A DNA stretch of 64,000 nt from a virus, in UHGV virus genome UHGV-1351982, one strand, 5' to 3'. The translations under genes were made by a program, and so were the position numbers. This document shows positions 5,955-57,281 of the stretch, one piece after another. Position 1 is the first letter of the stretch. The number at the start of each line of letters is the position of its first letter. Under the pieces are notes generated by a model. The model was not told where the DNA came from, searched no databases, and was given only the letters and a program-made list of their open reading frames with translations.

Positions 5955-5985
5955 CTTGCTTTCGACTCAGTTTTCATATATAATA
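5955..5985 (+). promoter_or_regulatory. sigma70-type early promoter (TTGCTT -35, TATAAT -10)
   Basis: 17-bp spacer; conserved downstream box ATTTATATAAATTGATGAGAGGA. Confidence 0.7.
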
Positions 5986-6013
5986 TTTATATAAATTGAT
6001 GAGAGGATCAATT

Positions 6014-6214
6014 ATGGCAATGACAATAACACTTCCAAAGATTCAAGCAAAACTTAATTTGCTCTCCATAGCAAGAATCAATTATCAGGATAGTATCGGC
6101 ACTCCAAACCAGAAAGCGTACAAAGATGCGTGGTTGAAAGAGGCTGCTGATTTAGCTGGTATGGCTGCTCAGTATAATAAAGAACTCAAAATGGAAATTG
6201 CAGACGATGAATAA
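6014..6214 (+). CDS. hypothetical small protein
   Basis: Track ORF 5996-6214; ATG at 6014 lies 6 nt after GAGAGGA, just downstream of a conserved promoter. Confidence 0.5.
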   Translation: MAMTITLPKIQAKLNLLSIARINYQDSIGTPNQKAYKDAWLKEAADLAGMAAQYNKELKMEIADDE

Positions 6215-9002: not shown

Positions 9003-10475
9003 ATGACCTTGTTTAACGTGCAAGCTGTAGTGTTGAAGATGCTTCTCGCTTCTGAACAGAAGCAAATAGCATTGGAAACATTCTCAAAACTGCATAAAGA
9101 TCATTTTAATGACGCTTTCTCCTCAATTTACCAAGCCGTCCAGAATTATTATAAGAAATATAACGCAATGCCGTCCATTGACGCACTGATGCTTGAGGCC
9201 AATAGGAACGCCCGCCTTTCTCAAGCTCTTGTCGTCTTAGCTAACACTCAAATTCCAGAAGTGAGCATGGAACAGGCGCTTGAAGTCCTAGAAGCCGAAT
9301 ATACACAGGATCTATTCCTGAAACTTCTAGAAACAGACGTGCTTCAAGATTTAACAATGCTGGATCAGGGAGAAATTCTCAACCGAGTTGCCTCCCTTCA
9401 CTTAAAATTAGAAGAGAAAGTAACGAATACTGGAAAGGTATTCAACGCAGACACAATGCGTATTTTCCAGAGAGAAGAAGATACCAAACTGAACTTGATC
9501 GCTCTTGGTATTTGTAATGAGTTCGACGCTCAAATTGGTTTAGCTCGCACAGAAACGTTACTGCTTGGTGGTTGGCGTGGTACTGGTAAATCCATTATCT
9601 GTTCAAACATACAGGTTCAGCAATATTTGAATGGAGACATTGCTCCATATTTCTCAATTGAGATGAAAGAGCACGAAGTGTTTAGACGTAATCTGGCTAT
9701 GTTAGCTGGAGTATCTGCATTAGCAATGCGTAATAACACTCTTGAAGGTGCTGCTCTGTTGAGATTAGCCAGAACTAGGGCTAGAATGTTTAATGGTGGT
9801 GAAGAGCTTTTCGATAACTTCGTTAAGCAATACACTATGGCTAAAATGAGTGACTTCTATGATATGGAAAGTAAACTCCTTGAAGGCTATGAGCTTCACA
9901 CTCCTATGATCATCGTTTACGATCCTGAACTGTCTATTACGACGGTTGACGTAGAATTAAATAAACTAGTTGCTAAATATGGTGATAAGGTTACTGTAGC
10001 TCTTCTAGACTATATTAACCAAACAAGACTTCCAGATTCAAAGACCATTGATATGTATGACTGGAAAGAACAGATGGTTGTTAGTTCATCTTTCAAATCT
10101 ATATGCCAGAAACATAACGTGGCTGGTGTTGCCCCTTACCAGATTGACCAAGATGGTAGAACGCGTATGTCTAAAGGGATTCTTGATTCCGCAGATATGG
10201 CTGCTAATCTTAACGCTGCAAAAGCTGATAATGGTCAAGGTGCTATTATGTTTGATTTCGTTAAGACTCGTTCCTCTGATAGTGTGAAGTTTATGCCTAA
10301 GATGAACTGGGAAACTCTACGAATGGATAACACTACCAACCTAGCAATGGAAGATATTGCGCAAATGGAAGCTGAGTTCGTTATTCCTATTGAAAAGGAT
10401 AAACCAGCTCAACCTAAACGTGCTAAGAAAGACAAAGCTGAAAATTCAACAGGTGAACAGGCCAGCGATATATGA
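9003..10475 (+). CDS. replicative DNA helicase (DnaB-like)
   Basis: Track ORF 8952-10475; ATG 9003 follows AAAGGAG and clears the upstream terminator hairpin; P-loop GGWRGTGKS; immediately precedes primase. Confidence 0.75.
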   Translation: MTLFNVQAVVLKMLLASEQKQIALETFSKLHKDHFNDAFSSIYQAVQNYYKKYNAMPSIDALMLEANRNARLSQALVVLANTQIPEVSMEQALEVLEAEYTQDLFLKLLETDVLQDLTMLDQGEILNRVASLHLKLEEKVTNTGKVFNADTMRIFQREEDTKLNLIALGICNEFDAQIGLARTETLLLGGWRGTGKSIICSNIQVQQYLNGDIAPYFSIEMKEHEVFRRNLAMLAGVSALAMRNNTLEGAALLRLARTRARMFNGGEELFDNFVKQYTMAKMSDFYDMESKLLEGYELHTPMIIVYDPELSITTVDVELNKLVAKYGDKVTVALLDYINQTRLPDSKTIDMYDWKEQMVVSSSFKSICQKHNVAGVAPYQIDQDGRTRMSKGILDSADMAANLNAAKADNGQGAIMFDFVKTRSSDSVKFMPKMNWETLRMDNTTNLAMEDIAQMEAEFVIPIEKDKPAQPKRAKKDKAENSTGEQASDI

Positions 10476-11424: not shown

Positions 11425-13992
11425 TTGAAAATTGCAGTAGTTGATAAAGCTCTAAATAACACTCGTTATGATAAACACTTCCAGCTTTATGGTGAGGAAG
11501 TTGATGTATTCCATATGTGTAACGAGAAGTTATCTGGTCGTTTGCTGAAAAAGCATATTACAATCGGAACTCCAGATAACCCGTTCGATCCGAACGATTA
11601 CGATTTTGTTGTACTAGTTGGTGCTGAACCTTTCCTGTATTTCGCAGGTAAGAAAGGTATCGGTGATTATACTGGTAAACGTGTGGAGCATGGCGGCTAT
11701 GCCAACTGGATTGCAAGTATTAGTCCAGCTCAGCTACACTTTAAACCTGAAATGAAACCAGTTTTCGATGCAACTGTAGAAAGTATTCATGACATTATTA
11801 ATGGTCGTGAGAAGATTGCAAAAGCTGGTGATTATCGTCCTATTACTGATCCAGACGAAGCTGAAGAATACATTAAGATGGTGTATAACATGGTTATCGG
11901 ACCTGTCGCATTCGACTCCGAAACCTCAGCTTTGTACGCTCGTGATGGTTATCTGCTTGGTGTTTCTATGTCTCACCAAGAGTATCAGGGTGTTTATATT
12001 GACTCTGACAGCATCACCGAAGTAGCTGTACATTATCTCCAGAAAATTCTGGATAGCAAGAATCATCAGATCGTTTTTCATAACTTGAAGTTCGATATGC
12101 ACTTTTATTCCTATCATTTAGGACTTTCCTTTGAGAAAGCACATAAAGAGCGTAGACTTCATGATACCATGTTACAACACTATGTTCTCGATGAACGTCG
12201 TGGTACTCACGGCTTGAAATCTCTGGCTATGAAGTATACTGACATGGGCGATTACGACTTTGAACTGGATAAGTTCAAGGATGATTATTGCAAAGCACAT
12301 AAAATCAAGAAAGAAGATTTCAGCTATGATCTGATTCCATTTGATATTATGTGGCCTTATGCTGCAAAAGATACCGATGCTACTCTGCGTCTGCATAACT
12401 TCTTCTTACCGAAAATTGAGAAGAATGAAAAACTTCGCAGTCTATACTATGATGTTCTGATGCCTGGTTGCGTATTCCTGCAACGTGTTGAAGATCGTGG
12501 TGTACCAATTTCTGTTGATCGCTTGAAAGAAGCTCAGTATCAGTTAACTCACAACCTGAACAAGGCTCGTGAAAAGCTGTATACTTATCCAGAAGTCGTT
12601 CAGCTAGAGAAAGATCAGAACAAAGCATTTAACCCGAACTCTGTTAAGCAACTTCGTGTTCTTCTGTTTGATTATGTTGGTCTGACTCCAACTGGTAAAC
12701 TGACAGATACAGGTGCAGATTCTACAAACGCAGAAGCTCTGAATGAATTGGCTACTCAGCACCCGATTGCGAAAACTCTGCTAGAGATTCGTAAGCTGAC
12801 TAAGCTGATCTCTACTTATGTTGAGAAGATTCTTCTGAGCATCGATGCAGATGGTTGCATTCGTACCGGTTTCCACGAACACATGACTACTTCTGGTCGT
12901 CTGAGTTCTTCTGGTAAGCTAAACCTGCAACAGTTACCGCGTGATGAATCTATTATCAAGGGTTGTGTAGTAGCTCCCCCTGGATATCGTGTAATCGCAT
13001 GGGACTTAACAACTGCGGAAGTTTATTACGCTGCTGTACTGTCTGGTGACAGAAACATGCAACAAGTATTTATCAACATGAAGAATGAGCCTGATAAATA
13101 CCCTGACTTCCACTCAAACATCGCACACATGGTATTTAAACTGACCTGTGAACCACGTGATGTTAAGAAGCTGTTCCCAGCTCTGCGTCAGGCTGCTAAG
13201 GCAATTACCTTCGGTATTCTGTATGGTTCTGGCCCAGCTAAAGTAGCTCATTCTGTTAACGAAGCTCTTCTGGAACAGGCTGCTAAGACAGGCGAACCGT
13301 TTGTTGAATGTACCGTTGCAGATGCGAAGGACTATATCGAAACTTACTTCGGTCAGTTCCCTCAGCTTAAGCGTTGGATTGATAAGTGCCACGATCAGAT
13401 CAAGAACTTTGGATTCATCTATAGTCACTTTGGTCGTAAGCGTCGTCTGCACAACATCCATTCCGAAGATCGTGGTGTTCAGGGTGAAGAAATCCGTTCT
13501 GGATTTAACGCAATCATTCAGTCTGCATCTTCTGATAGCCTGCTGTTAGGTGCTATTGATGCTGATGAAGAAATCCTATCCCTGGGTCTAGGAAAAGAGA
13601 TGAAGATCGTCATGTTGGTTCACGACTCCGTGGTTGCTATTGTACGTGAAGATCTGATTGATCAATATAACGAGATTCTGATTCGTAACATCCAGAAGGA
13701 TCGTGGTATTAGTATCCCTGGTTGCCCAATCGGTATTGATTCTGATTCTGAGAAAGGTGGTTCTCGTGACTACTCTTGTGGTAAGATGAAGAAACAGCAC
13801 CCATCAATCGCTTGTATTGATGATGATGAGTATACTCGTTATGTTAAGGGTGTATTACTCGATGCAGATTTCGAGTATAAGAAGTTAGCTGCAATGGATA
13901 AAGAGCATCCAGACCACAGCAAGTACAAGGATGATAAGTTTATTGCTGTATGTAAAGATCTGGATAATGTGAAAAGGATTTTAGGTGCTTGA
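11425..13992 (+). CDS. DNA polymerase, family A, T5-type (3'-5' exonuclease plus polymerase domains)
   Basis: 855 aa, the size recalled for T5 DNA polymerase; exonuclease motif AFDSETSAL; strong AAAGGAG RBS before TTG start. Confidence 0.9.
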   Translation: MKIAVVDKALNNTRYDKHFQLYGEEVDVFHMCNEKLSGRLLKKHITIGTPDNPFDPNDYDFVVLVGAEPFLYFAGKKGIGDYTGKRVEHGGYANWIASISPAQLHFKPEMKPVFDATVESIHDIINGREKIAKAGDYRPITDPDEAEEYIKMVYNMVIGPVAFDSETSALYARDGYLLGVSMSHQEYQGVYIDSDSITEVAVHYLQKILDSKNHQIVFHNLKFDMHFYSYHLGLSFEKAHKERRLHDTMLQHYVLDERRGTHGLKSLAMKYTDMGDYDFELDKFKDDYCKAHKIKKEDFSYDLIPFDIMWPYAAKDTDATLRLHNFFLPKIEKNEKLRSLYYDVLMPGCVFLQRVEDRGVPISVDRLKEAQYQLTHNLNKAREKLYTYPEVVQLEKDQNKAFNPNSVKQLRVLLFDYVGLTPTGKLTDTGADSTNAEALNELATQHPIAKTLLEIRKLTKLISTYVEKILLSIDADGCIRTGFHEHMTTSGRLSSSGKLNLQQLPRDESIIKGCVVAPPGYRVIAWDLTTAEVYYAAVLSGDRNMQQVFINMKNEPDKYPDFHSNIAHMVFKLTCEPRDVKKLFPALRQAAKAITFGILYGSGPAKVAHSVNEALLEQAAKTGEPFVECTVADAKDYIETYFGQFPQLKRWIDKCHDQIKNFGFIYSHFGRKRRLHNIHSEDRGVQGEEIRSGFNAIIQSASSDSLLLGAIDADEEILSLGLGKEMKIVMLVHDSVVAIVREDLIDQYNEILIRNIQKDRGISIPGCPIGIDSDSEKGGSRDYSCGKMKKQHPSIACIDDDEYTRYVKGVLLDADFEYKKLAAMDKEHPDHSKYKDDKFIAVCKDLDNVKRILGA

Positions 13993-47233: not shown

Positions 47234-47340
47234 CGCTAATTTGACTTTTGCCAAATCTCATAAGATTACACATGAAGGTGTGCCCAGAGGTTCCCTAGAT
47301 GAGAATGAGTCTCATTACCGCCCCCTTACTTAGCAAGCTA

Positions 47341-47390
47341 ATAGTCACACCATGTTATCATTACACAGTGTGACTATTTTATTTTTAATT
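47341..47390 (+). terminator. intrinsic terminator after small-membrane-protein genes
   Basis: 10-bp stem ATAGTCACAC/GTGTGACTAT followed by TTTTATTTTT. Confidence 0.6.
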
Positions 47391-47391
47391 G

Positions 47392-48126
47392 TTAGGCAAC
47401 TTTTAATTTATCAATGAATTGTTGCGGTGTGGTACTATATTCCGCGCGTTCTTCCTCGGTCATACCTTCCCAACACATTTTTAAACGTTCGGCTAGGAAT
47501 TGATAATCGTTATCATCATCAAGCGATTCATCAATAAAGGTTTCACCGATCAATGTTACGCCGATTGATAGGATATCGTTAACGGCTTGAGCATCCAGCG
47601 TTTTAAATCCAGCACTTGCCGCCGCTGATAATACACCTTTATGATCATCAATCATTGTAAAATCAGCATTAGGATATAGCTGTTTAAACAGTTCAAAGTA
47701 ATAAGATTTATATACAGCGTCTTTACTGTGGTATATTTCGCTAACCTTATTTGCATCAAAGTATTTATGTAATGTATCGCGGGAAAATACGCGAATATTA
47801 CTATTTCCGCGCCCTCGCAAGCCTTGTTTGCGTAAATAAAAATAATCGCTTTTAGACATTAGGCGCGCGGTACAAATAATATTTAAAGTATTTGCATCAT
47901 TCATACATTGGCGCATATATTCAACCAATGGCAATAAAGAATCCTGCATAATTAAATCATGCTTGCAGGCTTCGCGGGAATATTTATTTAAATCTAAATT
48001 CCCATTATCATCAAAACAAGGCCCGACACGGTGCATTGAGTTAATGATTGTACCGTCTAAATCCCAAATCATAACGCGGGAAATATGCGGGAAAGTGCGG
48101 GTAATATTCATGTTGACTTGATTCAT
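47392..48126 (-). CDS. dmp: 5'-deoxyribonucleotidase, HAD-like (T5 Dmp-like)
   Basis: 244 aa; HAD motif I (VMIWDLDGTI); pre-early gene neighbourhood with A1/A2 homologues. Confidence 0.7.
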   Translation of the reverse strand: MNQVNMNITRTFPHISRVMIWDLDGTIINSMHRVGPCFDDNGNLDLNKYSREACKHDLIMQDSLLPLVEYMRQCMNDANTLNIICTARLMSKSDYFYLRKQGLRGRGNSNIRVFSRDTLHKYFDANKVSEIYHSKDAVYKSYYFELFKQLYPNADFTMIDDHKGVLSAAASAGFKTLDAQAVNDILSIGVTLIGETFIDESLDDDNDYQFLAERLKMCWEGMTEEERAEYSTTPQQFIDKLKVA

Positions 48127-48213
48127 TTGTTACATTCTCCATTTAAGGGATTTAGGTTAATTCAATCTTGCCAGCTAATTATATTGGATTAGCTGGCAAT
48201 GTTCAATTAACTA

Positions 48214-48606
48214 TTAATTAGTGAGGCCATACGCTAGCGCGTCACCAATAAAGCTAAGATCTTCACCATGTACGCTAGAACGAATCCCCGCGCAAGTGTA
48301 GACCATCGCGCTAGCTTCTGGATTGCAGACCGGACACGGCTTAACAACCGCAAACGCTAGACCGGATTTAAGCGCATCAATAATAATTGTTTGTACTGTT
48401 AAAGTATCAGCGTAAACACCTTTTGCTTTTGTATGGCTTGCCACTTTGCCGGTATCATAAGCAAAGGTAGTAACCTGCAAAACGTCGTTATAATTCAGCA
48501 AATCGAAATTAACTTGCCCCGCCTCGACGTGATAACGTTCGCCATTAGAATAAACTAGAACGATGGAAGAAGTAGCGCGGTCAAAAGGAATGCTTTGGTT
48601 TTTCAT
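48214..48606 (-). CDS. hypothetical protein
   Basis: 130 aa ORF in pre-early operon. Confidence 0.5.
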   Translation of the reverse strand: MKNQSIPFDRATSSIVLVYSNGERYHVEAGQVNFDLLNYNDVLQVTTFAYDTGKVASHTKAKGVYADTLTVQTIIIDALKSGLAFAVVKPCPVCNPEASAMVYTCAGIRSSVHGEDLSFIGDALAYGLTN

Positions 48607-48638
48607 GTTTATGACTCCAGATTATTTAATTACGGGAT

Positions 48639-48917
48639 TTATTGAAAAAATACATTTAAAGATAAATCAGTTTTACGAAAATATGTTTCGTCGCCGTCTT
48701 TCCTTTCTTGATTAAGGTAATCGCCTGTCATTACCTGAATAGAATCTTTTCCGAAAAAGATCATATTTTCGCCAATATTACTATCCCATACGGCGTACAT
48801 TCCCGCGTACATTCCACGGGTAACTAAATAAACGCAACTATCAAAAGACATTTCAGACCATGCAATATCTTCTAAACAATTGCTATCAGGGATAGATATA
48901 TTAATTTTACTAGCCAT
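48639..48917 (-). CDS. hypothetical protein
   Basis: 92 aa ORF in pre-early operon. Confidence 0.5.
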   Translation of the reverse strand: MASKINISIPDSNCLEDIAWSEMSFDSCVYLVTRGMYAGMYAVWDSNIGENMIFFGKDSIQVMTGDYLNQERKDGDETYFRKTDLSLNVFFQ

Positions 48918-48969
48918 TTAATAAACCTTTTATTAATGGCGGTATATTTCAACCGCCGATTAAATTTAA

Positions 48970-50634
48970 TTATGCAAAGAATTTACCGTTCTTAAAGTCA
49001 ATCAATGTTCTTTGACCGTTTGCATAGGTAATTAAATGCGTTTGCGTCCAGCTTGACGCGCCCACGTTGTAGCCCATATCAAGGGAACCAGCAACGCCAG
49101 CGGTATAAACGCCGCCGTAAATGCTAGCCGTATGAGTATGACCAGTGTTAAGGCGTCCCAACTTTTTAAACTGCTTAGGATTGCCCCGACTGCCGTTAAT
49201 GCCATTGTGACCATGTACGCCGCATTCAATGCCAGCGATTTTAAACGACTGGTCAGTAGTCAGGAAAATAGCGTTAAATTCGCAACCTGCGACACTACGC
49301 AAGGCGTAATCTAGCACGTTAAAAGTATCATCCTTTTCAGCAATAGCGGCGTATATAGCAGCGTTTAGACGGTGATACAATTCCGCGTTTGCGGGATCGT
49401 CTTTAATGTTAGCGTTACGATCATCTAACCAGCGGGATAAAGCTAAATCATGGTTAGATTCAACAATGATTGTTTGAGAGAAATCACGCTCCATTGATTC
49501 TAATACGCGTCCAGTGTCGATAAGATCATCTAGAACCTTGTCACGTCCTGCGGCGTACTGTTTAGCAAGGAATACACCACTAGCGCGGTTGTGATGGTTA
49601 CGCGATGTAAAATCATGCACATCATGAATAAACTGATATTTAGGCTTGAGAATATCAAGCAAGCTGTTTTCACTAGCCCATGAAGCAACGGCGCATTCAT
49701 CATCTAATTTTTCGGCGTGAATATCACCATATTGCAAGCCTAGAACATGATCGGACGTTTCAAAACATCCGGTAGGCATAGCGCAAACATTCAAATCATA
49801 AAACATTCCGCTTTCGTCCATCGTTTCAAGCTGACGAACAAAAAATTCGCCGTCGTCGTCAAATTCTACCAGCAAAGCGCCGAAATTATGTAAAGCCTCG
49901 GCCTTTTGTCCTGCCTTTTGCTGGATATAGTTTTTAAGCGTAGCCGTTCCGGTTGAATACATACGGCGCACTACTTCACCTTTTAACGCTGGCACACTTT
50001 CAGCGGTAATTTTAGCGTGACCAATTGCCAGACCTTCAATATTTAAAGCCGTGGCGGTTTCTGCGAATCCTGAAAGCGGATAGTCTGCCGTTGGTAACAC
50101 GTTAATTTCAGCCATGAAAGCAAAACGGCGATTATTTAAAAATACGTTTTTCTCGCAAATATATTTATTAAATGCGGGATCGTATTTAATGCCTTCGTTA
50201 CCTTCTCCATTCTGGAAGCCGTTTTTATTGTAAATGAATTTACTAACCAGCAATTCACCGCCGATATATTCAGCGAATTTTTCCAGACTTGCTAAAAAGT
50301 TTTTATGCGGGAAAGTATTATTTTGAATCGACGTTAGAATAAAACGGCGACCGGATTTAACTTCCCACTGTTCCACGGTACTAGAAACAATTCCCGCCGC
50401 TTCGGGGCGATCATCATTTTTAATCGCCTTTTCAGCTTTTGCCGCTTTCGGTTTTGCTGGCTTATTTGCTTCCAACCAATCGCAAATTGCGGTTGAATGT
50501 TTCGTTGTATCGTAAACAGCTTTTGATATATCGTCGCAAACTTCCAGCTTAGTAGCGCGTAAACGTTTACCGTAGAAATTAAAATCAGCGGCAAGTTTAA
50601 CGATCTGGGCTTGTTTTTCTGCGGAAATATTCAT
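48970..50634 (-). CDS. A1: A1-like pre-early protein, metallophosphoesterase fold
   Basis: 554 aa (T5 A1 recalled as ~556 aa); calcineurin-type motifs (SDH, GDIH, ESNHD, GHTHT). Confidence 0.8.
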   Translation of the reverse strand: MNISAEKQAQIVKLAADFNFYGKRLRATKLEVCDDISKAVYDTTKHSTAICDWLEANKPAKPKAAKAEKAIKNDDRPEAAGIVSSTVEQWEVKSGRRFILTSIQNNTFPHKNFLASLEKFAEYIGGELLVSKFIYNKNGFQNGEGNEGIKYDPAFNKYICEKNVFLNNRRFAFMAEINVLPTADYPLSGFAETATALNIEGLAIGHAKITAESVPALKGEVVRRMYSTGTATLKNYIQQKAGQKAEALHNFGALLVEFDDDGEFFVRQLETMDESGMFYDLNVCAMPTGCFETSDHVLGLQYGDIHAEKLDDECAVASWASENSLLDILKPKYQFIHDVHDFTSRNHHNRASGVFLAKQYAAGRDKVLDDLIDTGRVLESMERDFSQTIIVESNHDLALSRWLDDRNANIKDDPANAELYHRLNAAIYAAIAEKDDTFNVLDYALRSVAGCEFNAIFLTTDQSFKIAGIECGVHGHNGINGSRGNPKQFKKLGRLNTGHTHTASIYGGVYTAGVAGSLDMGYNVGASSWTQTHLITYANGQRTLIDFKNGKFFA

Positions 50635-50743
50635 AACTAATTCAACTCCTATAAAGGGATAAAGATTAAAGCTGGCAATATTGCCAAATATAACGCCTTG
50701 CCTGAAGTGAGGACAATTTAAAAGGCGTTATAATTTGCAACAT

Positions 50744-50968
50744 TTAATTAATCGGCATTAAACTAGAACAAAAGCCAAATACAATGCCAATTGTAAGAAA
50801 GATAATTGACATATATTTTTGAATGTTCGCGTTTTTGCGGAAATTATTTGCGGCGTAAACGTTATTAATTCCAATTATTGCCAGAATTGACCGCGTATAA
50901 TTCAGAATAAAAGCGGCGGCAATAATAAATAAACCTAAAATAAACGCTTCGCTAGGATAAAAGATCAA
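50744..50968 (-). CDS. small membrane protein
   Basis: 74 aa; two hydrophobic segments. Confidence 0.45.
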   Translation of the reverse strand: MIFYPSEAFILGLFIIAAAFILNYTRSILAIIGINNVYAANNFRKNANIQKYMSIIFLTIGIVFGFCSSLMPIN

Positions 50969-51018
50969 GATTATTCTCCTTTAAGGGATAGCGGGGAATA
51001 TTCCCCGCTAATTAAAAT

Positions 51019-51435
51019 TTATTCACCTGCGGCCTGTTTTACTTCCTCCGCTACGCCTAACAATTGCGCTACGGCGTCCAGCGTTTCCAGTTTTGCACTT
51101 TCCAGACTTGCCAAATCGTCGGCATCTTTTACAATGCCGCTATCAATGGCATGTTTAGCAATGACGCGCACATAGTGAGCTTTACGGACAGAGCTACCGC
51201 CGCCAACTTTACGCGGTTTATCGCTTTTCTGATAGGCTTTTGCACTGGCCAATTTAGAACGTACAGAAACAGGGGACGCAGCGCCAACGGCGGCGGCAAT
51301 TTCTTTTAAGCCGTCACTATTCGCAAACTCAATCCCGCTTTTAGCAACCATTTCAGAGTACATAGAAACAGCTTTTTCGGTGTTTTCTTCGTTCCAAGAG
51401 AATTTTGCGGTTTTTTCGGTTTTAACGTTAGACAT
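51019..51435 (-). CDS. A2: A2-like pre-early protein (putative DNA-binding)
   Basis: 138 aa; immediately upstream of A1 homologue in transcript order; size consistent with T5 A2. Confidence 0.6.
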   Translation of the reverse strand: MSNVKTEKTAKFSWNEENTEKAVSMYSEMVAKSGIEFANSDGLKEIAAAVGAASPVSVRSKLASAKAYQKSDKPRKVGGGSSVRKAHYVRVIAKHAIDSGIVKDADDLASLESAKLETLDAVAQLLGVAEEVKQAAGE

Positions 51436-51535
51436 AATTTAATACTCCATTCAATTATTAATTAAGGGATTATGATTAACTAATGTTAATCCATATATTC
51501 CCCATATTTCAGGGGAATATAAAAGTAACACTAAT

Positions 51536-51787
51536 TTATGCTATAGCTTGCCATTTATCATCTTTCTGAATGATCTTTACAACGTCGCCAGATTTAACGC
51601 GAACATTATAAATAGGCTTGCTGTTGTTACTGCGTTCCGTTTCCGCATAGACCGCTTCAATCTTATCAAAGGGATCAAGCGCCGCACCTTTGATACGTTC
51701 GGCTTTTCCGGTTAATTCATCAGTTTTAGTTACAAAAGGAATGAAAACAGATTGACCTACTTTCGGCGCGGTAATAACGTTTTGCAT
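51536..51787 (-). CDS. hypothetical protein
   Basis: 83 aa ORF in pre-early operon. Confidence 0.5.
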   Translation of the reverse strand: MQNVITAPKVGQSVFIPFVTKTDELTGKAERIKGAALDPFDKIEAVYAETERSNNSKPIYNVRVKSGDVVKIIQKDDKWQAIA

Positions 51788-51898
51788 TTTTAATACTCCG
51801 GTTTATTGGGGATTATTCCACAATAGCGCCTCGATACTTTGAAACGCTATTAGATTATAATCCGCTAGGAGTTAGCCTAAACATTACCATTATCCAAA

Positions 51899-51944
51899 TT
51901 TTTAAAGAGCAGTTACTACGGGGAACATCTTAAAACCTATCGGC
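51899..51944. repeat. composite repeat A+B upstream-flanking a small basic ORF
   Basis: 13-mer TTTTTAAAGAGCA (A) plus 25-mer GGGGAACATCTTAAAACCTATCGGC (B); partner at 52204-52243 has B inverted and A direct. Confidence 0.55.
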
Positions 51945-51951
51945 TAGCGTG

Positions 51952-52170
51952 TCAAGCGTTTTTTAAACTTTTTTCGATTTGATGTGAGTTATATAAATCA
52001 ATCATTATATTACGCCACACCATTTCCAGACCTTGCTGCTTACCTTTCTTGTATTGCTTGAATCTGTATTTTACAGATCGTTGCGCTACTGTCAACAAAT
52101 TTTTTGTTCTGCTATCCAGTGGGCTAGCAGGTTTTGCACTAATCACTAAAGCGTTTTTTGATTTGATCAT
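51952..52170 (-). CDS. small basic protein (possible DNA-binding)
   Basis: 72 aa, Lys/Arg-rich; flanked by 25-bp inverted repeats. Confidence 0.45.
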   Translation of the reverse strand: MIKSKNALVISAKPASPLDSRTKNLLTVAQRSVKYRFKQYKKGKQQGLEMVWRNIMIDLYNSHQIEKSLKNA

Positions 52171-52203
52171 TATCGTCGATTCCTTATAATGTATAAGTTT
52201 ACC

Positions 52204-52243
52204 GCCGATAGGCTTTAAGATGTTCCCTAGTTTTTAAAGAGCA
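52204..52243. repeat. composite repeat B'(inverted)+A
   Basis: GCCGATAGGCTTTAAGATGTTCCC is the reverse complement of B (2 mismatches), followed by a direct copy of TTTTTAAAGAGCA. Confidence 0.55.
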
Positions 52244-52560
52244 TGGCGGTAAACTTCCCCGCCGTGTAATCTTGCGTTTCGTTTCCGTCCCGCCGTCCTA
52301 CGAGATAAATAATAGGGGATTCCCGAAAATGGCGCAACCTTATTTTTGTAAAGAAACGTAAAGAAAACCACTACCCGCACCACGGCAAGCGGCGCACTAA
52401 GTTTAATGAAACAGGCGCGCGAATAACACTAAAACAACCACTTTAGCAAGTAATTTTTTCATTTATATCTGCTCTAGGGTACTTGACAAAATCTAAAATC
52501 CTCGTGGTGAGGTTTTCTCGGTGTACCCCTTATGATTGCCTATCTTTTCCTTTGATGCGC

Positions 52561-52587
52561 TTAGAATCGCTTACAGAGCGTTTTAGA
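52561..52587. repeat. ~27-bp direct repeat, copy 1 (TTAGAATCGCTTACAGAGCGTTTTAGA)
   Basis: Near-identical copy at 56302-56329. Confidence 0.6.
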
Positions 52588-52799
52588 CCCTGTTAATAAC
52601 TTATACAAAAAGCAAAAATGAAATTTAATGAGTTATCCACTTGATTTTTCAAAAAAGTATTTTCTGCTGTTATTTTTCATTGACAAATAAGTTTAGACGT
52701 GCATTGATTGGTTAGCAGACTAACAATCGCTAGGATAATAATCACGCTGGTGGATTGTAACAGCCGAAACAGTTAGCAGACTATTAATACTCTAAAAAC

Positions 52800-52834
52800 C
52801 TATTAGCCAACTAACTATTTCATATTATATAATA
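52800..52834 (+). promoter_or_regulatory. orphan promoter-like element (TATAAT at 52828-52833) in a non-coding region
   Basis: Matches the conserved -10 plus downstream box (TATAATATACTTATAAATTAAAGAGA) but no ORF follows for >400 bp; -35 weak. Confidence 0.35.
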
Positions 52835-52904
52835 TACTTATAAATTAAAGAGAAATAATAACTATAAGAAACTATCGGCTAAGTGAGAACCACTATCATT
52901 TAGG

Positions 52905-52974
52905 TTATTCACAAAGTTATCCACAGCACAAAATAACTTGACGCAATAGGCGACGTTTTGGCGACTTATCCACA
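52905..52974. promoter_or_regulatory. DnaA-box cluster (TTATTCACA 52905-13, TTATCCACA 52917-25, TTATCCACA 52966-74)
   Basis: Two perfect and one near-consensus 9-mer matching the E. coli DnaA box TTATCCACA, inside an ~1 kb non-coding region. Confidence 0.6.
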
Positions 52975-52994
52975 GACTTATGTACAGGTTATCC

Positions 52995-53014
52995 TACTGT
53001 ATAAATATACAGGG
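52995..53014. promoter_or_regulatory. LexA-type SOS-box-like palindrome (TACTGTATAAATATACAGGG)
   Basis: CTGT-N8-ACAG with AT-rich core, next to the DnaA boxes. Confidence 0.5.
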
Positions 53015-53261
53015 TAGAATGGTAGCAGTAACAACCGCAATCAAATTTAAGCGGCCTAGAACGCGCTACACGGCGTTTTCTCACTGCTACCCTTATTATA
53101 ATAAAGCCTTGTGTACGCTTACAGAGAGCTAGAAATAGAAAACGCGCGGTTATCATAAAAACAGGCAGTAGGCAAGGAATAAAAAACCTTTTCTTTTTTC
53201 TTGCCCATAGTGAACAAATATCTATATCATTCACTCACCGATTAACGAGGGAGGCAAAGAA

Positions 53262-54281
53262 ATGTCTACTGTAAGAATTGCAGTGCCAGCAAACGCAACT
53301 ATTGTTAAAGGTAGTTTGCGCAACCTGCTAGATGGTAGTAGTGCGGCAAGTATTCAGCACACCGCTACTATTGTAGAAAAGATTCACGATGAAATTTTAG
53401 ACAATAATGATACTCATTATTCAGTTGATGATTTCACGCTATTACTAGACCAGACAAGGGCGCTAGTAATTTTCAACCGTGATTATCACATTTTCCGTAA
53501 TAGTCGGGGAACTGATATTGATTTTATCATTGTTGGTTATAGTGAGTCTCATAGTGGTTACATTGCGCGATTATATAACGTGCAAGAAAAGGAGCAGGTA
53601 ACAGCAACAAAAGTAAATAATATCCGGCTGGATAGTGTCGGATCGTTATTAAATAGTATCTGGCGTGAATTATCCTCAAGCTATAAAGGTGCGGATAGTG
53701 ACGCAATCGAAACAACTGGCGTATTGTGTTTTGAAAAGTCAACGGGTAACATGTTGATCCCTAGCGATTATTTAGGGTATGGGAATGAATCAAACGTTGC
53801 AAACGCTGGATTTACACTTTTCCCGCTTGACAATGTAACAAAACAGGCTGTAAACTCTCAAACTTCAAGCGCAATTGCGCAAACTACTGAAAATAAAGGA
53901 AATAACACTATGTCTAAAGTAACCGCTATCGTTGCCGCTAATAAATCCGCCGCCGCTACCGCTGCAAAACTGGAAGCGGGTAAAGTAGCACTAACTCAGC
54001 TTACAAAAGTAGCGGCTAAAGCCCTGCCTTCTGGTATGGCTGGCATGTTCGCTAAACAGTATTTAGATACTCCGGTCGGGCGCGTTGTTGTTGCCAACTT
54101 GTTAAATCTGGCAATCGAACAATACGCACCGAATAACCAGAAAGCGCGAATTGTTGCTAAAGCCGCAATGGATGCCGCAATGCTGGAAGTGGTACAGAGT
54201 TTCAATATTTCTGAAATGATCGACAAGGCAATCGAGGGAATCAACATTGATGCTTTGACTGCTAATATTTCAGAAGAGTAA
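53262..54281 (+). CDS. hypothetical pre-early protein
   Basis: 339 aa; GAGGGAGG RBS; Ala-rich C-terminal half; intrinsic terminator downstream. Confidence 0.6.
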   Translation: MSTVRIAVPANATIVKGSLRNLLDGSSAASIQHTATIVEKIHDEILDNNDTHYSVDDFTLLLDQTRALVIFNRDYHIFRNSRGTDIDFIIVGYSESHSGYIARLYNVQEKEQVTATKVNNIRLDSVGSLLNSIWRELSSSYKGADSDAIETTGVLCFEKSTGNMLIPSDYLGYGNESNVANAGFTLFPLDNVTKQAVNSQTSSAIAQTTENKGNNTMSKVTAIVAANKSAAATAAKLEAGKVALTQLTKVAAKALPSGMAGMFAKQYLDTPVGRVVVANLLNLAIEQYAPNNQKARIVAKAAMDAAMLEVVQSFNISEMIDKAIEGINIDALTANISEE

Positions 54282-54289
54282 TAATAACA

Positions 54290-54325
54290 AGCGGGAATTA
54301 ATTTTCCCGTTTTCTTCCCTTTTAG
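54290..54325 (+). terminator. intrinsic terminator
   Basis: Hairpin CGGGAA-TTAATT-TTCCCG followed by TTTTCTTCCCTTTT. Confidence 0.65.
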
Positions 54326-54339
54326 TTAGGAGACTAATT

Positions 54340-54831
54340 ATGTTTGGTAACAGAAATTATGGCAACCCTATTGAAGCACGATCCCTTAATCATGACGCAA
54401 TTGTATTCACTCATGCGTCTACCGGTTATTGTGGATCAGATGGGAATGATTATCATTTCGTTCCCGCTGGTGACGATATTGATGATCTATGTAATGAGGC
54501 AGGTTATGAAAATGCTTGCTCTTATGGTCTAGAAGTTATTGAAGTAGACGACGGCGAATATGAGGATAATGATAATATTGAATGCTCCGCTTATCATTAT
54601 CAGTTAAGTGAATCAGGTTGTTATATTGGCGGCGGCGATCCTATTAATTCCATCACTGAAATAATTATTGAAAATGGTGGCGTTTCGCTGAATGGTAACA
54701 AGGCGTTACTATATGCAAACCGATTAAAGCAACTTGTATATATTCCTGATGGGAAAGAATGGGAAGAATACAACGTTCTAATTGCAGAATTGAAAAGCTG
54801 TTTCGGCGTGGAAGTGGTAGAAATAGTCTAA
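54340..54831 (+). CDS. strongly acidic protein (candidate DNA mimic / anti-restriction)
   Basis: 163 aa; roughly 30 Asp+Glu against about 7 Lys+Arg, several Cys; AGGAG RBS; own terminator. Confidence 0.6.
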   Translation: MFGNRNYGNPIEARSLNHDAIVFTHASTGYCGSDGNDYHFVPAGDDIDDLCNEAGYENACSYGLEVIEVDDGEYEDNDNIECSAYHYQLSESGCYIGGGDPINSITEIIIENGGVSLNGNKALLYANRLKQLVYIPDGKEWEEYNVLIAELKSCFGVEVVEIV

Positions 54832-54845
54832 TGTAAAGTTTTGTA

Positions 54846-54875
54846 AAGGTCGCCCTAATCGGCGGCCTTTTTTGT
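54846..54875 (+). terminator. intrinsic terminator
   Basis: Hairpin GGTCGCC-CTAAT-CGGCGGCC followed by TTTTTTG. Confidence 0.65.
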
Positions 54876-54938
54876 TATAATGCCTTTACACCGAAACGGT
54901 GGATTGAAAATTTTCCCTGATTTCTAGGAGGCGTTAAA

Positions 54939-55169
54939 ATGGTTGCTTTCTCTTCTTCTGACTCCCTTTTCACTGGTAAAGGTTGGGTATCTAATCGCTG
55001 GATCATTGATCAAATGGTTTCGGAATTTGGGATTGGTAAAACTTATGTTACCATTCAGGCGCTTTATGATAATGACAAGATTGACCAGCAAACCGCCGGA
55101 TTTTTGCTGGATACGCTGAAAGCGGAACATTGCACTAAAAAGCAAGCGGCAAAAATTGTTTTAATGTAA
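54939..55169 (+). CDS. hypothetical protein
   Basis: 76 aa; TAGGAGG RBS 7 nt upstream. Confidence 0.55.
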   Translation: MVAFSSSDSLFTGKGWVSNRWIIDQMVSEFGIGKTYVTIQALYDNDKIDQQTAGFLLDTLKAEHCTKKQAAKIVLM

Positions 55170-55216
55170 TTAATAACGGGGCGTTACTTTCGCCCCTCAT
55201 TCCCTTACTAGGAGTT

Positions 55217-55435
55217 ATGCAAATGTTAAAGAATGTTTCCCTTGCCCGTTCTAAAGGTTTTAAGCTGGTGGATGTTAACACCTTCGAGCGTCCAGATTGT
55301 AAAATCGAATATGTAGCACGCAACAAAAACCCTTTCCGTGTTACAGAAAAGAAATTTGACAAGCGCGGCAATTTGATAGCCGAAACGGTTAAACACTTTG
55401 CTACTTTTTACGCTGCTTTTCGTGGGGTATTATGA
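55217..55435 (+). CDS. hypothetical protein
   Basis: 72 aa; TAGGAG RBS. Confidence 0.55.
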   Translation: MQMLKNVSLARSKGFKLVDVNTFERPDCKIEYVARNKNPFRVTEKKFDKRGNLIAETVKHFATFYAAFRGVL

Positions 55436-55544
55436 GATCCTTATATATTGCTCTAGCGTTTGCTACTGTTGGCGTTGTATGCTCATTCGCCGCATTTGTT
55501 TTAAAAATGTACATGATATTTTCCCAGCTTTAGGAGGTTGACAA

Positions 55545-55892
55545 ATGGTAATTTATGAGGGCAATCGTTTTGTTGCTAATTGCCGTCCGGCATTGTTAGC
55601 AAACTATTTAAATCAGCTTTCACCAGTTTATAAAGGCGTGGTTAATATCTATGAAGGCAAAGCACATTATAAAATTTCTGCCGTTGTCGCTCGCGAGCTT
55701 GCCTTTCAGTTTCTTACTTTTAACTCATGCGATATTCAGGTTATGGGTGAGCCATTAGTCGCAGAAAATGAAAATGAATTTATTGACATTTTCCGCAAAG
55801 TATGTACAGAGCGCCTGATTATGAAGGGCGCGTATATTCAATCAACCGCTGAAAGTATTGAAACAGCGTTTCGAAAAATTGTAAATGAATAG
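55545..55892 (+). CDS. hypothetical protein
   Basis: 115 aa; TAGGAGG RBS. Confidence 0.55.
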   Translation: MVIYEGNRFVANCRPALLANYLNQLSPVYKGVVNIYEGKAHYKISAVVARELAFQFLTFNSCDIQVMGEPLVAENENEFIDIFRKVCTERLIMKGAYIQSTAESIETAFRKIVNE

Positions 55893-56018
55893 CTGGTGGC
55901 GAAAAACACAAAGCCATAAATCTAATAATACCGCTGGGAAACATTCCCAGCGTTTACGATTTGGTAATGGCTGCGTAATGATATTGATAATCATCCTCAT
56001 TCTAGGAGCGATGGCGTT

Positions 56019-56213
56019 ATGAGTGATAAAATTGTTGTAACTAAAACTACTGTTACCGTTGATACTTTCTTTGTGCCTGATACGCTGGAAAATCGGCAAT
56101 TAGTCGAGCGTGGCGATTATGACAAAGTGATATATGATGGGGATGGATACTATCAACATTTGGTAGACTCCTACGGCGAAAGCGAAAAGATCACACATCG
56201 ACTACCAGACTAA
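56019..56213 (+). CDS. hypothetical protein
   Basis: 64 aa; TAGGAG RBS; terminator downstream. Confidence 0.5.
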   Translation: MSDKIVVTKTTVTVDTFFVPDTLENRQLVERGDYDKVIYDGDGYYQHLVDSYGESEKITHRLPD

Positions 56214-56216
56214 TAA

Positions 56217-56250
56217 TAACGGGGCGCAACTATCGGCCCCGTCTTTTCTG
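56217..56250 (+). terminator. intrinsic terminator closing the pre-early + cassette
   Basis: Hairpin ACGGGGC...GCCCCGT followed by CTTTTCT. Confidence 0.55.
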
Positions 56251-56301
56251 GCCTTCCTCAAATTTCCCCTTATTAAAATACCTCTTCCAAAAATAAACGC
56301 G

Positions 56302-56329
56302 TTAGAATGCGTTACAGAGCGTTTTAGAG
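56302..56329. repeat. ~27-bp direct repeat, copy 2
   Basis: TTAGAATGCGTTACAGAGCGTTTTAGA, matching 52561-52587. Confidence 0.6.
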
Positions 56330-56358
56330 CTATATTAGAGTTATTCACTACGCAGGAA

Positions 56359-56378
56359 TACTGTATAAATATACAGTA
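56359..56378. promoter_or_regulatory. LexA-type SOS-box-like palindrome (TACTGTATAAATATACAGTA)
   Basis: Near-perfect match to the LexA consensus TACTGTATATATATACAGTA; second copy, in inverted module. Confidence 0.55.
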
Positions 56379-56398
56379 GAATAATCTGTTGATAAGTC

Positions 56399-56468
56399 TG
56401 TGGATAACGCCTCAAAATCGCTAGGATTTTGTCAAGTCAAATCGTGCTGTTAATAAACCTGTGGATAA
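56399..56468. promoter_or_regulatory. DnaA boxes in inverse orientation (TGTGGATAA at 56399-56407 and 56460-56468)
   Basis: Two perfect reverse-complement DnaA 9-mers; with the LexA-like box they form an inverted copy of the 52.9-53.0 kb module. Confidence 0.6.
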
Positions 56469-56499
56469 CTTAAATAACAGTGTTTCTCACTTCGCTTTG

Positions 56500-56640
56500 T
56501 AAATGCGAGTCATTCTCATTATCATTCGCGTTTCCCTTCCTAAATGCAAATCATTCTCATTCGTATTCCGGTAGTCAAATGATAACTATTCTCATTCGCA
56601 TTCAACTTCTCAAATGCGAATCAATCTCATTATCATTCGC
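56500..56640. repeat. four tandem ~30-bp dyad-symmetric iteron-like repeats
   Basis: AAATGC(G/A)A(G/A)TCATTCTCATT(ATCATTCGC) units at about 56500, 56542, 56575 and 56610, each with an internal GCGA..TCATTCGC inverted repeat. Confidence 0.6.
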
Positions 56641-56680
56641 ATTTCGGCAGGCAGGGCATTTTCTATTTGCCCTGCGCTTT

Positions 56681-57281
56681 TGTGCAAATCCGACATTTGC
56701 CCCCACGGATTACGTGCCAGCGTGTATGTGCGAATCCGACAATTTTTGGTAGTGTGCAAATCCGACCCGAAATATTTTTATAGTGTGCGAATCCGACAAT
56801 GAATTTCCCTAAAAACTCCAGCAATCTCGAACTGCGATCGAATCCTGTGGGATATGCGCAAATCCGACATGAGTTTGCTAGGAGACAGATTTATGGTTTC
56901 AGGAATATTTTTGTGACTTCGATGAGAGGGTGTGTAATTGTGTGAGTTTGGGGAGAAGTGCGAATCCGATGAGGTTTTGGGAGGAACTATGAGAGGAGCA
57001 GCGGTGTTGGTGCTTTAGCACCGATTTGCTGCGTTTTTGGGGATAATGTGAGATGTTTTGGGATAATTGGGCGTGGGGTGAGATAAAGTGAAATTTTATT
57101 AGTTAAATGGGGCAAAATCGCTTGACAAGTGAAAATTCCTGTGTCCCTAAAAACTCAGGCAATCATGGGCCTTCGGCCCGAAATAATGCTGCTATTTTCA
57201 GGAGATTATGTGCTCATGAAAACTTAGGCAATTGTGCAAATCCGACCAGTTTTTAAACTTATATCAGTGTGCAAATCCGAT
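56681..57281. repeat. eight dispersed copies of the 13-mer GTGCRAATCCGA(C/T)
   Basis: Copies at about 56681, 56727, 56754, 56784, 56855, 56958, 57232 and 57266, in a region with no convincing ORF. Confidence 0.65.

Follow-up and report, generated by a model that had tools for sequence, protein, structure and literature searches.

The window analysed here is a 64,000-nt stretch of the virus genome UHGV-1351982 that, judging by homology, belongs to a T5-like phage and takes in its terminal repeat, the region of first-step transfer. Within it, a rightward pre-early operon is bracketed by two modules in which DnaA boxes lie next to a CTGT-N8-ACAG palindrome. By alignment, these modules are the conserved IRC-spacer-IRD and IRD'-spacer-IRC' segments (inverted repeats C and D and their counterparts) of T5-like first-step-transfer DNA. 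The bracket and its DnaA boxes are already known, because they are annotated in GenBank and were discussed by Davison (bioRxiv 10.1101/866236). What appears to be unreported is that the palindrome, "palindrome D" of T5, reads as a top-grade candidate for a LexA operator, one that has been kept across the Demerecviridae and is phased with respect to the DnaA array. In the reading favoured here, the modules would be places on the first-transferred DNA at which DNA-binding proteins of the host dock, and would mark the boundary of that DNA, which we regard as plausible while stopping just short of calling it probable.

A repeat search returned the two arms as an inverted repeat of 135 nt (52878-53012 and 56361-56495; 75% complementary) with 3348 nt between the arms. 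The left arm is the orthologue of IRC-spacer-IRD (Repeat Region 2 of T5; ~79% identity to T5 6022-6164) and the right arm is that of IRD'-spacer-IRC' (Repeat Region 3; 87% identity to T5 9261-9491). In the T5 record (GenBank AY587007), inverted repeats C and D are annotated at 6022-6152 and D' and C' at 9332-9462, together with inverted repeats B and B', palindrome D (9330-9349), the DRC and DRD repeats, and the 7.9% nick. The arms of the window occupy the same place as the two T5 Repeat Regions relative to A2, the rightward operon, the stop-region repeats, and the 7.9% nick, and they carry the same eight DnaA/DnaA* boxes. The right arm lies directly left of the stop-region repeats and of the nick homologue (56670-56677). 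An earlier note on this DNA, made from the sequence alone, had considered the bracket as a boundary of the first-transferred DNA, and the identity of the arms with the T5 Repeat Regions and the position of the right arm bear this out. The phage differs from T5 in being of an Epseptimavirus-like genus and in having other cassette genes; its bracket region is 93-95% identical to Epseptimavirus-type T5-like terminal repeats (Stitch, EH3, NG_S8). Davison described 25 T5-like phages with the repeat pair, with eight DnaA/DnaA* boxes in pairs spaced by 3 bp, a spacer constant at 52 bp, and, between the arms, a gene block that varies greatly, and proposed that membrane-bound DnaA, a protein that is partly membrane-associated, holds the DNA at the injection stop signal (bioRxiv 10.1101/866236). 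Later papers repeat this idea and note that experiments are lacking.

The perfect DnaA box TTATCCACA occurs four times in the window, each time within an arm (52917 and 52966 on the + strand, 56399 and 56460 on the - strand). By chance, 0.78 copies per window would be expected, and four were obtained in 1 of 100 shuffles. The two boxes per module counted previously are these perfect copies, and that count stands for them; taking all DnaA-type boxes together, there are four to five per arm, arranged in pairs or triples with a spacing of 2-3 bp. They start at 52905, 52917, 52966, 52978, and 52989 in the left arm and, in mirror image, at 56376, 56387, 56399, 56448, and 56460 in the right arm. On the left, on the + strand, the pair TTATTCACA-aag-TTATCCACA (52905-52925), which fits TTWTNCACA, is followed ~40 bp further on by the triple TTATCCACA-gac-TTATGTACA-gg-TTATCCTAC (52966-52997), the last box of which overlaps the flank of the LexA-like box. 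On the right, on the - strand, a triple at 56376-56407 is made up of TTATCCACA (56399-56407), TTATCAACA (56387-56395), and the degenerate TTATTCTAC (56376-56384), and a pair at 56448-56468 of TTATCCACA (56460-56468) and TTATTAACA (56448-56456). The innermost DnaA-type box adjoins the palindrome in each arm. The T5 rule of eight DnaA/DnaA* boxes in 3-bp-spaced pairs is satisfied by 52905/52917, 52966/52978, 56387/56399, and 56448/56460. An IHF-core-like sequence, TATCAACAGATTA, was seen by eye at 56382-56394 (-); it agrees with the core WATCAANNNNTTR and shares bases with the DnaA* box TTATCAACA. A 12-bp sequence, AATCGCTAGGAT, is repeated exactly, once upstream of the left arm (52725-52736) and once in the spacer of the right arm (56416-56427). 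The arms were also considered as structured non-coding RNA and as a module derived from the host; both ideas were rejected, as folding gave z-scores of +0.56 to -1.33 with no Rfam match in the arms, and no match was obtained among 5,426 E. coli genomes.

The palindrome was found, as had been claimed for each module, at 52997 and 56361; both copies in the window are the same 16-mer, CTGTATAAATATACAG, located at the inner end of each arm, and this 16-mer is identical in both T5 copies. Extended to 20 bp, the proximal candidate operator, TACTGTATAAATATACAGGG (52995-53014), matches the published LexA consensus TACTG(TA)5CAGTA (PMC6590174) at 17 of 20 positions, and the distal candidate, TACTGTATAAATATACAGTA (56359-56378), which equals palindrome D of T5, does so at 19 of 20. 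Their heterology index (HI) values are 3.57 and 0.78, respectively, as calculated with a matrix that was assembled from 24 E. coli operators and that gives approximate values. With HI values of 2.1-12.2 for those 24 operators, both boxes fall within the range of the tightest ones. The next-best LexA-like site in the window, AGCTGTATACTTATCCAGAA at 12575-12594, is moderate, with an HI of 8.7; it is situated within an open reading frame (ORF) of 855 aa and is probably due to chance. Markov-shuffled sequence yielded 0.05 sites per window at an HI of 8.5 or lower. The asymmetric centre of the palindrome, AA, is the same on the + strand in both arms, which makes the box a direct and not an inverted repeat; the inverse orientation originally ascribed to the modules thus applies to the 135-nt arms and does not extend to the palindrome itself. 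Promoter-like hexamers (TTATCC/TTATCA-16-TATAAA/TATATT) overlap the boxes and derive from the DnaA and LexA motifs themselves.

Like the LexA operators of E. coli (dinD, umuDC, sulA, and plasmid mucAB), the phage boxes are 20-bp palindromes with an invariant CTG/CAG and a free centre. They differ from these operators in lying off the annotated promoter, with one of them downstream of the operon, in being phased relative to DnaA boxes, and in their occurrence in a strictly virulent phage, where the LexA sites are predicted from sequence. In the published descriptions of T5 that were consulted, the palindrome figures as palindrome D or as a possible cleavage site and not as a LexA site. The Davison preprint (10.1101/866236) makes no mention of LexA, SOS, or promoters. 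The earlier note had mentioned reports of repeats and DnaA boxes near the T5 injection stop, without paired LexA-type boxes; the former are indeed published for this locus, and a LexA or SOS reading of the palindrome or its 16-mer was not found in the searchable literature on T5-like phages, although older literature may mention it.

Conservation of the bracket was examined in 40 loci collected via the A2 protein, blind to the motifs, of which 32 were distinct and had enough DNA. An alignment across relatives, suggested in advance as a check, showed that none of the 32 distinct T5-like loci lacks either arm and that the right box has kept CTG...CAG in every one of them, with ATCCAG, GTACAG, and CTGTGT as variants. 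The positional information in the phage boxes tracks the profile of E. coli LexA operators (r = 0.75), with an invariant CTG and with the flanks and the central N4 left free. Strong LexA-type boxes stand by perfect DnaA boxes at both ends of the block in the 32 T5-like loci and in six distant phages, where chance would give no more than 0.05 per locus. The central dinucleotide of the palindrome (52997-53012 and 56361-56376 in the window; loci L003-L042 in the set) is AA or TT only, never AT or TA, and flips between the two states among close relatives and between arms. These flips suggest gene conversion between the arms or hairpin-templated switching.

The six distant Demerecviridae were collected via A1, with identities from 64% down to 31%, and comprise Pantoea phage AAS21, Proteus phage Stubb, Aeromonas phage TS3, and the Vibrio phages 70E36-1, PG07, and Thalassa. 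In all six, LexA-type boxes (best HI 1.8-5.7) are found at no more than ~100 bp from a perfect TTATCCACA at the ends of a divergent pre-early block, a pairing expected by chance no more than 0.02 times per locus. The block ends of these phages mostly cannot be aligned by BLAST; a short inverted repeat at the box positions was seen in AAS21 and Thalassa only. The side of the stop signal has a grammar common to all: a "GCTTACAGRGCG" element, ~30 bp, CTGTAT-N4-ATACAG, and DnaA boxes on the opposite strand. Every one of the Demerecviridae examined has a gammaproteobacterial host, so that none offers a host outside this class in which to compare LexA motifs. An A1 homologue in a Rhizobium phage is located within an unrelated replication module of the Autographiviridae.

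The site content of the modules, its family-wide conservation, and its position are matters of observation. In each module, two groups of DnaA boxes in the same orientation are placed ~five helical turns apart, and the inner group adjoins the near-consensus LexA operator; from this content we infer that DnaA and LexA would occupy the sites. The abundance and affinity of LexA are established knowledge and make occupancy of the box by LexA a strong physical expectation. The resulting DnaA/LexA nucleoprotein complexes would mark the boundary of the injected DNA and hold it in place. During the pause, the right module would be at the cytoplasmic membrane face, with the injection-stop repeats and the 7.9% nick just to its right, and it would be the functional boundary element, with the left module as a weaker, dispensable duplicate. 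A role of the modules in the injection pause itself is speculative. The right box, which is the better conserved of the two, comes after the terminator-like hairpin of the operon, beside the stop-region repeats and away from the promoter. Davison (bioRxiv 10.1101/866236) cites an extra first-transfer fragment of ~5.85 kb, near IRC, beside the one of ~9.6 kb, and the two fragments point to pauses near both arms. A more specific proposal can be made, which we advance tentatively and consider on balance doubtful: a near-consensus LexA operator ~two helical turns from the DnaA array would be a conserved component of the first-transfer boundary throughout the Demerecviridae, by which a strictly virulent phage would enlist the SOS repressor alongside DnaA in the control of its two-step injection, either structurally or for sensing. 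Staged entry is also known from T7, in which host proteins on the first-entered DNA set the extent of entry and RNA polymerase pulls the DNA in, and which is not known to carry DnaA or LexA sites. T5 differs from it in that the pause is released by A1/A2 and that a part played by DNA-bound host proteins has only been proposed.

Several observations weigh against assigning the modules to host proteins in this way. The left box is damaged in 6 of the 32 T5-like loci (ACAA in four, CCAG in one, and a 1-bp deletion in Stitch), and the proximal box of two Vibrio phages has a CATG half-site. The whole right arm is highly conserved, with some stretches, CTTAAATAACAGTGTTTCTCACTTCC among them, that are more invariant than the box, so that the box is not an isolated peak of conservation. 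T5 plates on recA strains, and cleavage of LexA can therefore not be a required trigger. LexA is not known to be bound to the membrane, and proteins on DNA that has already entered have no obvious means of stopping further entry. T5 DNA is fully released in vitro with purified receptor, which limits the docking-site reading and at the same time suggests that the stop needs factors of the cell. A T5 mutant with a deletion from hegG to 017 is viable and forms small plaques; the deletion probably removes the left arm, in which case the arms are not essential as a pair. According to the paper on phage BF23, these sites have yet to be studied by experiment. Lastly, the true ligand of the palindrome could be A2, a dimeric DNA binder with an S..SVRSKL helix motif that is invariant family-wide.

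The terminal repeat in which the arms are located extends from 47282 to 57152, by homology to the terminal repeat of Salmonella phage Stitch (1-9982). A single copy of it is present, with unique phage DNA on either side, so that the record must represent an assembly that was collapsed or circularly permuted, and not the natural linear genome with two repeats. The left part of the repeat contains the leftward ORFs dmp (47392-48126, -), A1 (48970-50634, -), and A2 (51019-51435, -), and the arms lie to the right of these, around the oppositely transcribed pre-early operon. The six + strand genes previously read at 53262-56213 were confirmed as six ORFs: a DUF7566 protein (53262-54281), phrog_6741 (54340-54831), phrog_5145 (54939-55169), a member of the Ung-dependent abasic-site nickase family named for T5 gene 015 (55217-55435), phrog_4379 (55545-55892), and phrog_6973 (56019-56213). 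At the end of the operon, a terminator-like GC hairpin followed by a T run was recognized by reading (56217-56247, +); it resembles a hairpin at 55171-55196.

To the right of the right arm, a repeat search and the annotation and sequence of T5 delimit an injection-stop-type repeat field (56501-57281, +), which includes four "AAATGCGAATCATTCTCATTATCATTC" repeats of the T5 DRC type (56501-56638), the homologue of the 7.9% nick, CCCTGCGC (56670-56677; T5 9661-9668), and "TGTGCAAATCCGAC" repeats of the T5 DRD type (56671-57281). The AAATGCGAATCATTCTCATTATCATTC-type repeats match the E. coli Fur-box consensus GATAATGATAATCATTATC at 14 of 19 positions. Fur-like sites with at least 14/19 matches number 14 in the window, 12 of them inside the terminal repeat, as compared with ~4.5 expected for the window as a whole, which is a weak signal. 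The resemblance is curious, as the prototype of the family, T5, uses the iron-regulated receptor FhuA; a Fur-box reading of the repeats was rejected as weak, the matches being 14/19 only.

A promoter-like sequence, TTGCCC-18-TATCAT (53201-53230, +), is the homologue of the putative promoter T5P4, annotated in T5 just before gene 011, and likely drives the cassette. Three pre-early promoters of T5 have been characterised by experiment, and one of them, P11, lies upstream of gene 011. The left box lies ~190 bp upstream of the T5P4 homologue and the right box lies past the terminator-like hairpin at the operon end, positions off the promoter that make control of the cassette by host factors at a simple operator, as envisaged in the earlier note, unlikely. 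A second promoter-like site of the T5 type, TAGCCA-18-TATAAT followed by ATACTT-ATAAATTA (52804-52848, +), is putative and points into the left arm; its motif (TATAAT, N6-ATAAATTA) has been kept in T5 (AY587007, about 5960-6015, with the -10 sequence at 5999). Activity of this site would turn the left arm into a transcribed leader.

The arms are accompanied by a 27-nt direct repeat, the "TTAGAA..CGCTTACAGAGCGTTTTAGA" element (52561-52587 and 56302-56328, both +; 89% identical). Its presence agrees with what had been described, but its placement just outside each module does not: the left copy is ~290 bp outside the left arm, and the bracket encloses the right copy, which precedes the right box by 33 bp and is strongly conserved in close relatives. 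The element is thus not symmetric about the bracket, and its copies were rejected as target-site duplications, as they do not flank the arms symmetrically. By position and motif, unaligned, the left copy is probably the equivalent of T5 inverted repeat B. The right copy overlaps a hairpin that, on the - strand, resembles a terminator (56313 to 56296; together 56296-56328). The corresponding left hairpin, AACGC-N8-GCGTT followed by a T-rich run (53060-53077, +), was recognized by reading within a degenerate inverted copy of the element; it is weak and was not flagged in the terminator scan. Position and similarity by eye, again unaligned, make this degenerate copy the probable equivalent of T5 inverted repeat B'. 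The same hairpin with its T-rich run is thus found on the cassette side of each box (53060-53077, +; 56296-56313, -), and the two, embedded in the 27-bp element, resemble weak terminators that face inward. In Sugarland-type, Pantoea, and Vibrio phages, an inverted 27-bp element is also present on the cassette side of the proximal box. These inverted inner copies suggest an ancestral arm that consisted of a DnaA pair, a spacer, a DnaA group, a LexA-type box, and the 27-bp element, and the inner left copy, probably T5 inverted repeat B' by its position and motif, has degenerated in the window and in T5.

The hairpins bear on an alternative in which the modules would be transcriptional boundary elements, with the DnaA arrays and LexA acting as roadblocks or insulators at both ends of the operon together with the inward hairpins. 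RNA polymerase would be kept from leaving the operon in the direction of the DNA that is still in the tail, transcription from outside (for instance from the 52804 promoter-like site or from leftward early transcripts) would be kept out of a toxic cassette, and loss of LexA after phage-induced DNA damage could alter the insulation. The arms bracket promoter, operon, and terminator exactly, terminator-like hairpins point inward by each box (56313 to 56296, -; and, by eye, 53060-53077, +), and the promoter-like site kept in T5 is aimed into the left arm. T5 genes 011, 013, and 015 of the corresponding operon are toxic when expressed alone, and DnaA bound to a DnaA box can reportedly block RNA polymerase, as for the asnC transcript of E. 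coli. A single LexA dimer, however, is a weak roadblock, and no promoter in the arms finds support apart from the DnaA and LexA motifs themselves. In addition, the homologue of the annotated promoter is ~190 bp away from the left box, and the gene 011 promoter is active early without SOS induction. We think it unlikely that insulation is what the modules serve.

The palindrome, and perhaps the 27-bp element, may instead be the site of a phage protein, most likely A2 with A1, in which case A1/A2 would act at the modules in restarting or processing transfer and the resemblance to an SOS box would be coincidental or competitive. A2 is essential for second-step transfer and binds DNA, without a known target. 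Its N-terminal three-helix region (W-x2-E...S-x3-V-R-x-K-L; gene at 51019-51435, -) is invariant from T5-like to Vibrio phages, as is the putative recognition helix S..SVRSKL within the same span of phages. With such an invariant helix, a conserved family-wide site would be expected for A2 as well, so that conservation cannot separate A2 from LexA. Two features of the boxes themselves favour A2: positions 6-9 (TATA) are kept more strictly than in E. coli operators, and two Vibrio phages have retained TGTATA..TATACA even though one CTG was lost. For LexA speak the 19/20 match to the host consensus together with the LexA positional profile, which would be an unlikely coincidence, the competition for the box to be expected from abundant LexA, and the neighbouring unambiguous host DnaA boxes, which favour a logic of host factors. 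The fold of A2 does not settle the matter: a single-sequence model has a predicted local distance difference test (pLDDT) value of 57 and no significant Foldseek match, and A2 has no sequence homologue in the PDB and no Pfam match. The N-terminal pattern resembles a helix-turn-helix of the Myb/SANT type. Altogether, we give A2 a small share of the probability as the protein that recognises the palindrome.

Exchange of accessory cassettes among co-infecting T5-like phages, with the arms serving mainly as recombination boundaries and the protein sites being incidental, is improbable. The block is indeed highly variable in content, and its length ranges from ~1.5 to 4.1 kb between conserved arms, and the flips of the AA/TT centre without AT/TA intermediates suggest gene conversion between arms. 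Exchange, however, needs flanking homology and not an inverted orientation, perfect host sites, or a constant spacer, and the DnaA and LexA motifs persist in distant phages, in which identity between the arms is mostly undetectable by BLAST. The cassette has the same orientation in every annotated genome examined and contains no recombinase or transposase family; with this, a transposon, an insertion sequence, or an invertible segment was rejected too.

In their clustered DnaA boxes of the same orientation and the IHF-core-like site, the arms are similar to oriC, datA, and DARS, which have consensus DnaA boxes at 2-3 bp spacing and an IHF-core-like site. An origin-like element, as suggested in the earlier note, in the form of a DnaA-dependent replication origin or of a datA/DARS-like element that manipulates host DnaA, is nevertheless very improbable, since the phage has two inverted clusters 3.3 kb apart, the origins of T5 map elsewhere, near the centre of the genome, with the replication genes not yet in the cell before the second transfer (Davison, bioRxiv 10.1101/866236), no unwinding element was noticed (none was looked for), and control of host initiation has little obvious value when the host chromosome is destroyed within minutes.

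In conclusion, T5 interrupts injection once 8% of its genome is inside and then resumes it, a behaviour that has been an open question for ~60 years and for which the DnaA-box idea is the only sequence-based proposal to date. The LexA-site reading adds a second host factor, which is non-essential and easily manipulated, and it does so for phages ranging from those of E. coli to those of Vibrio. With lexA(Def), lexA(Ind-), and recA hosts in existence and engineering of T5 possible, a model based on host factors is directly testable. Should LexA turn out to be irrelevant, the palindrome would be the best candidate for the target of the essential A2 protein. If the proposal is true, LexA would help to hold the DNA or to insulate the boundary, and the state of LexA would link the progress of infection to the DNA damage caused by the phage.

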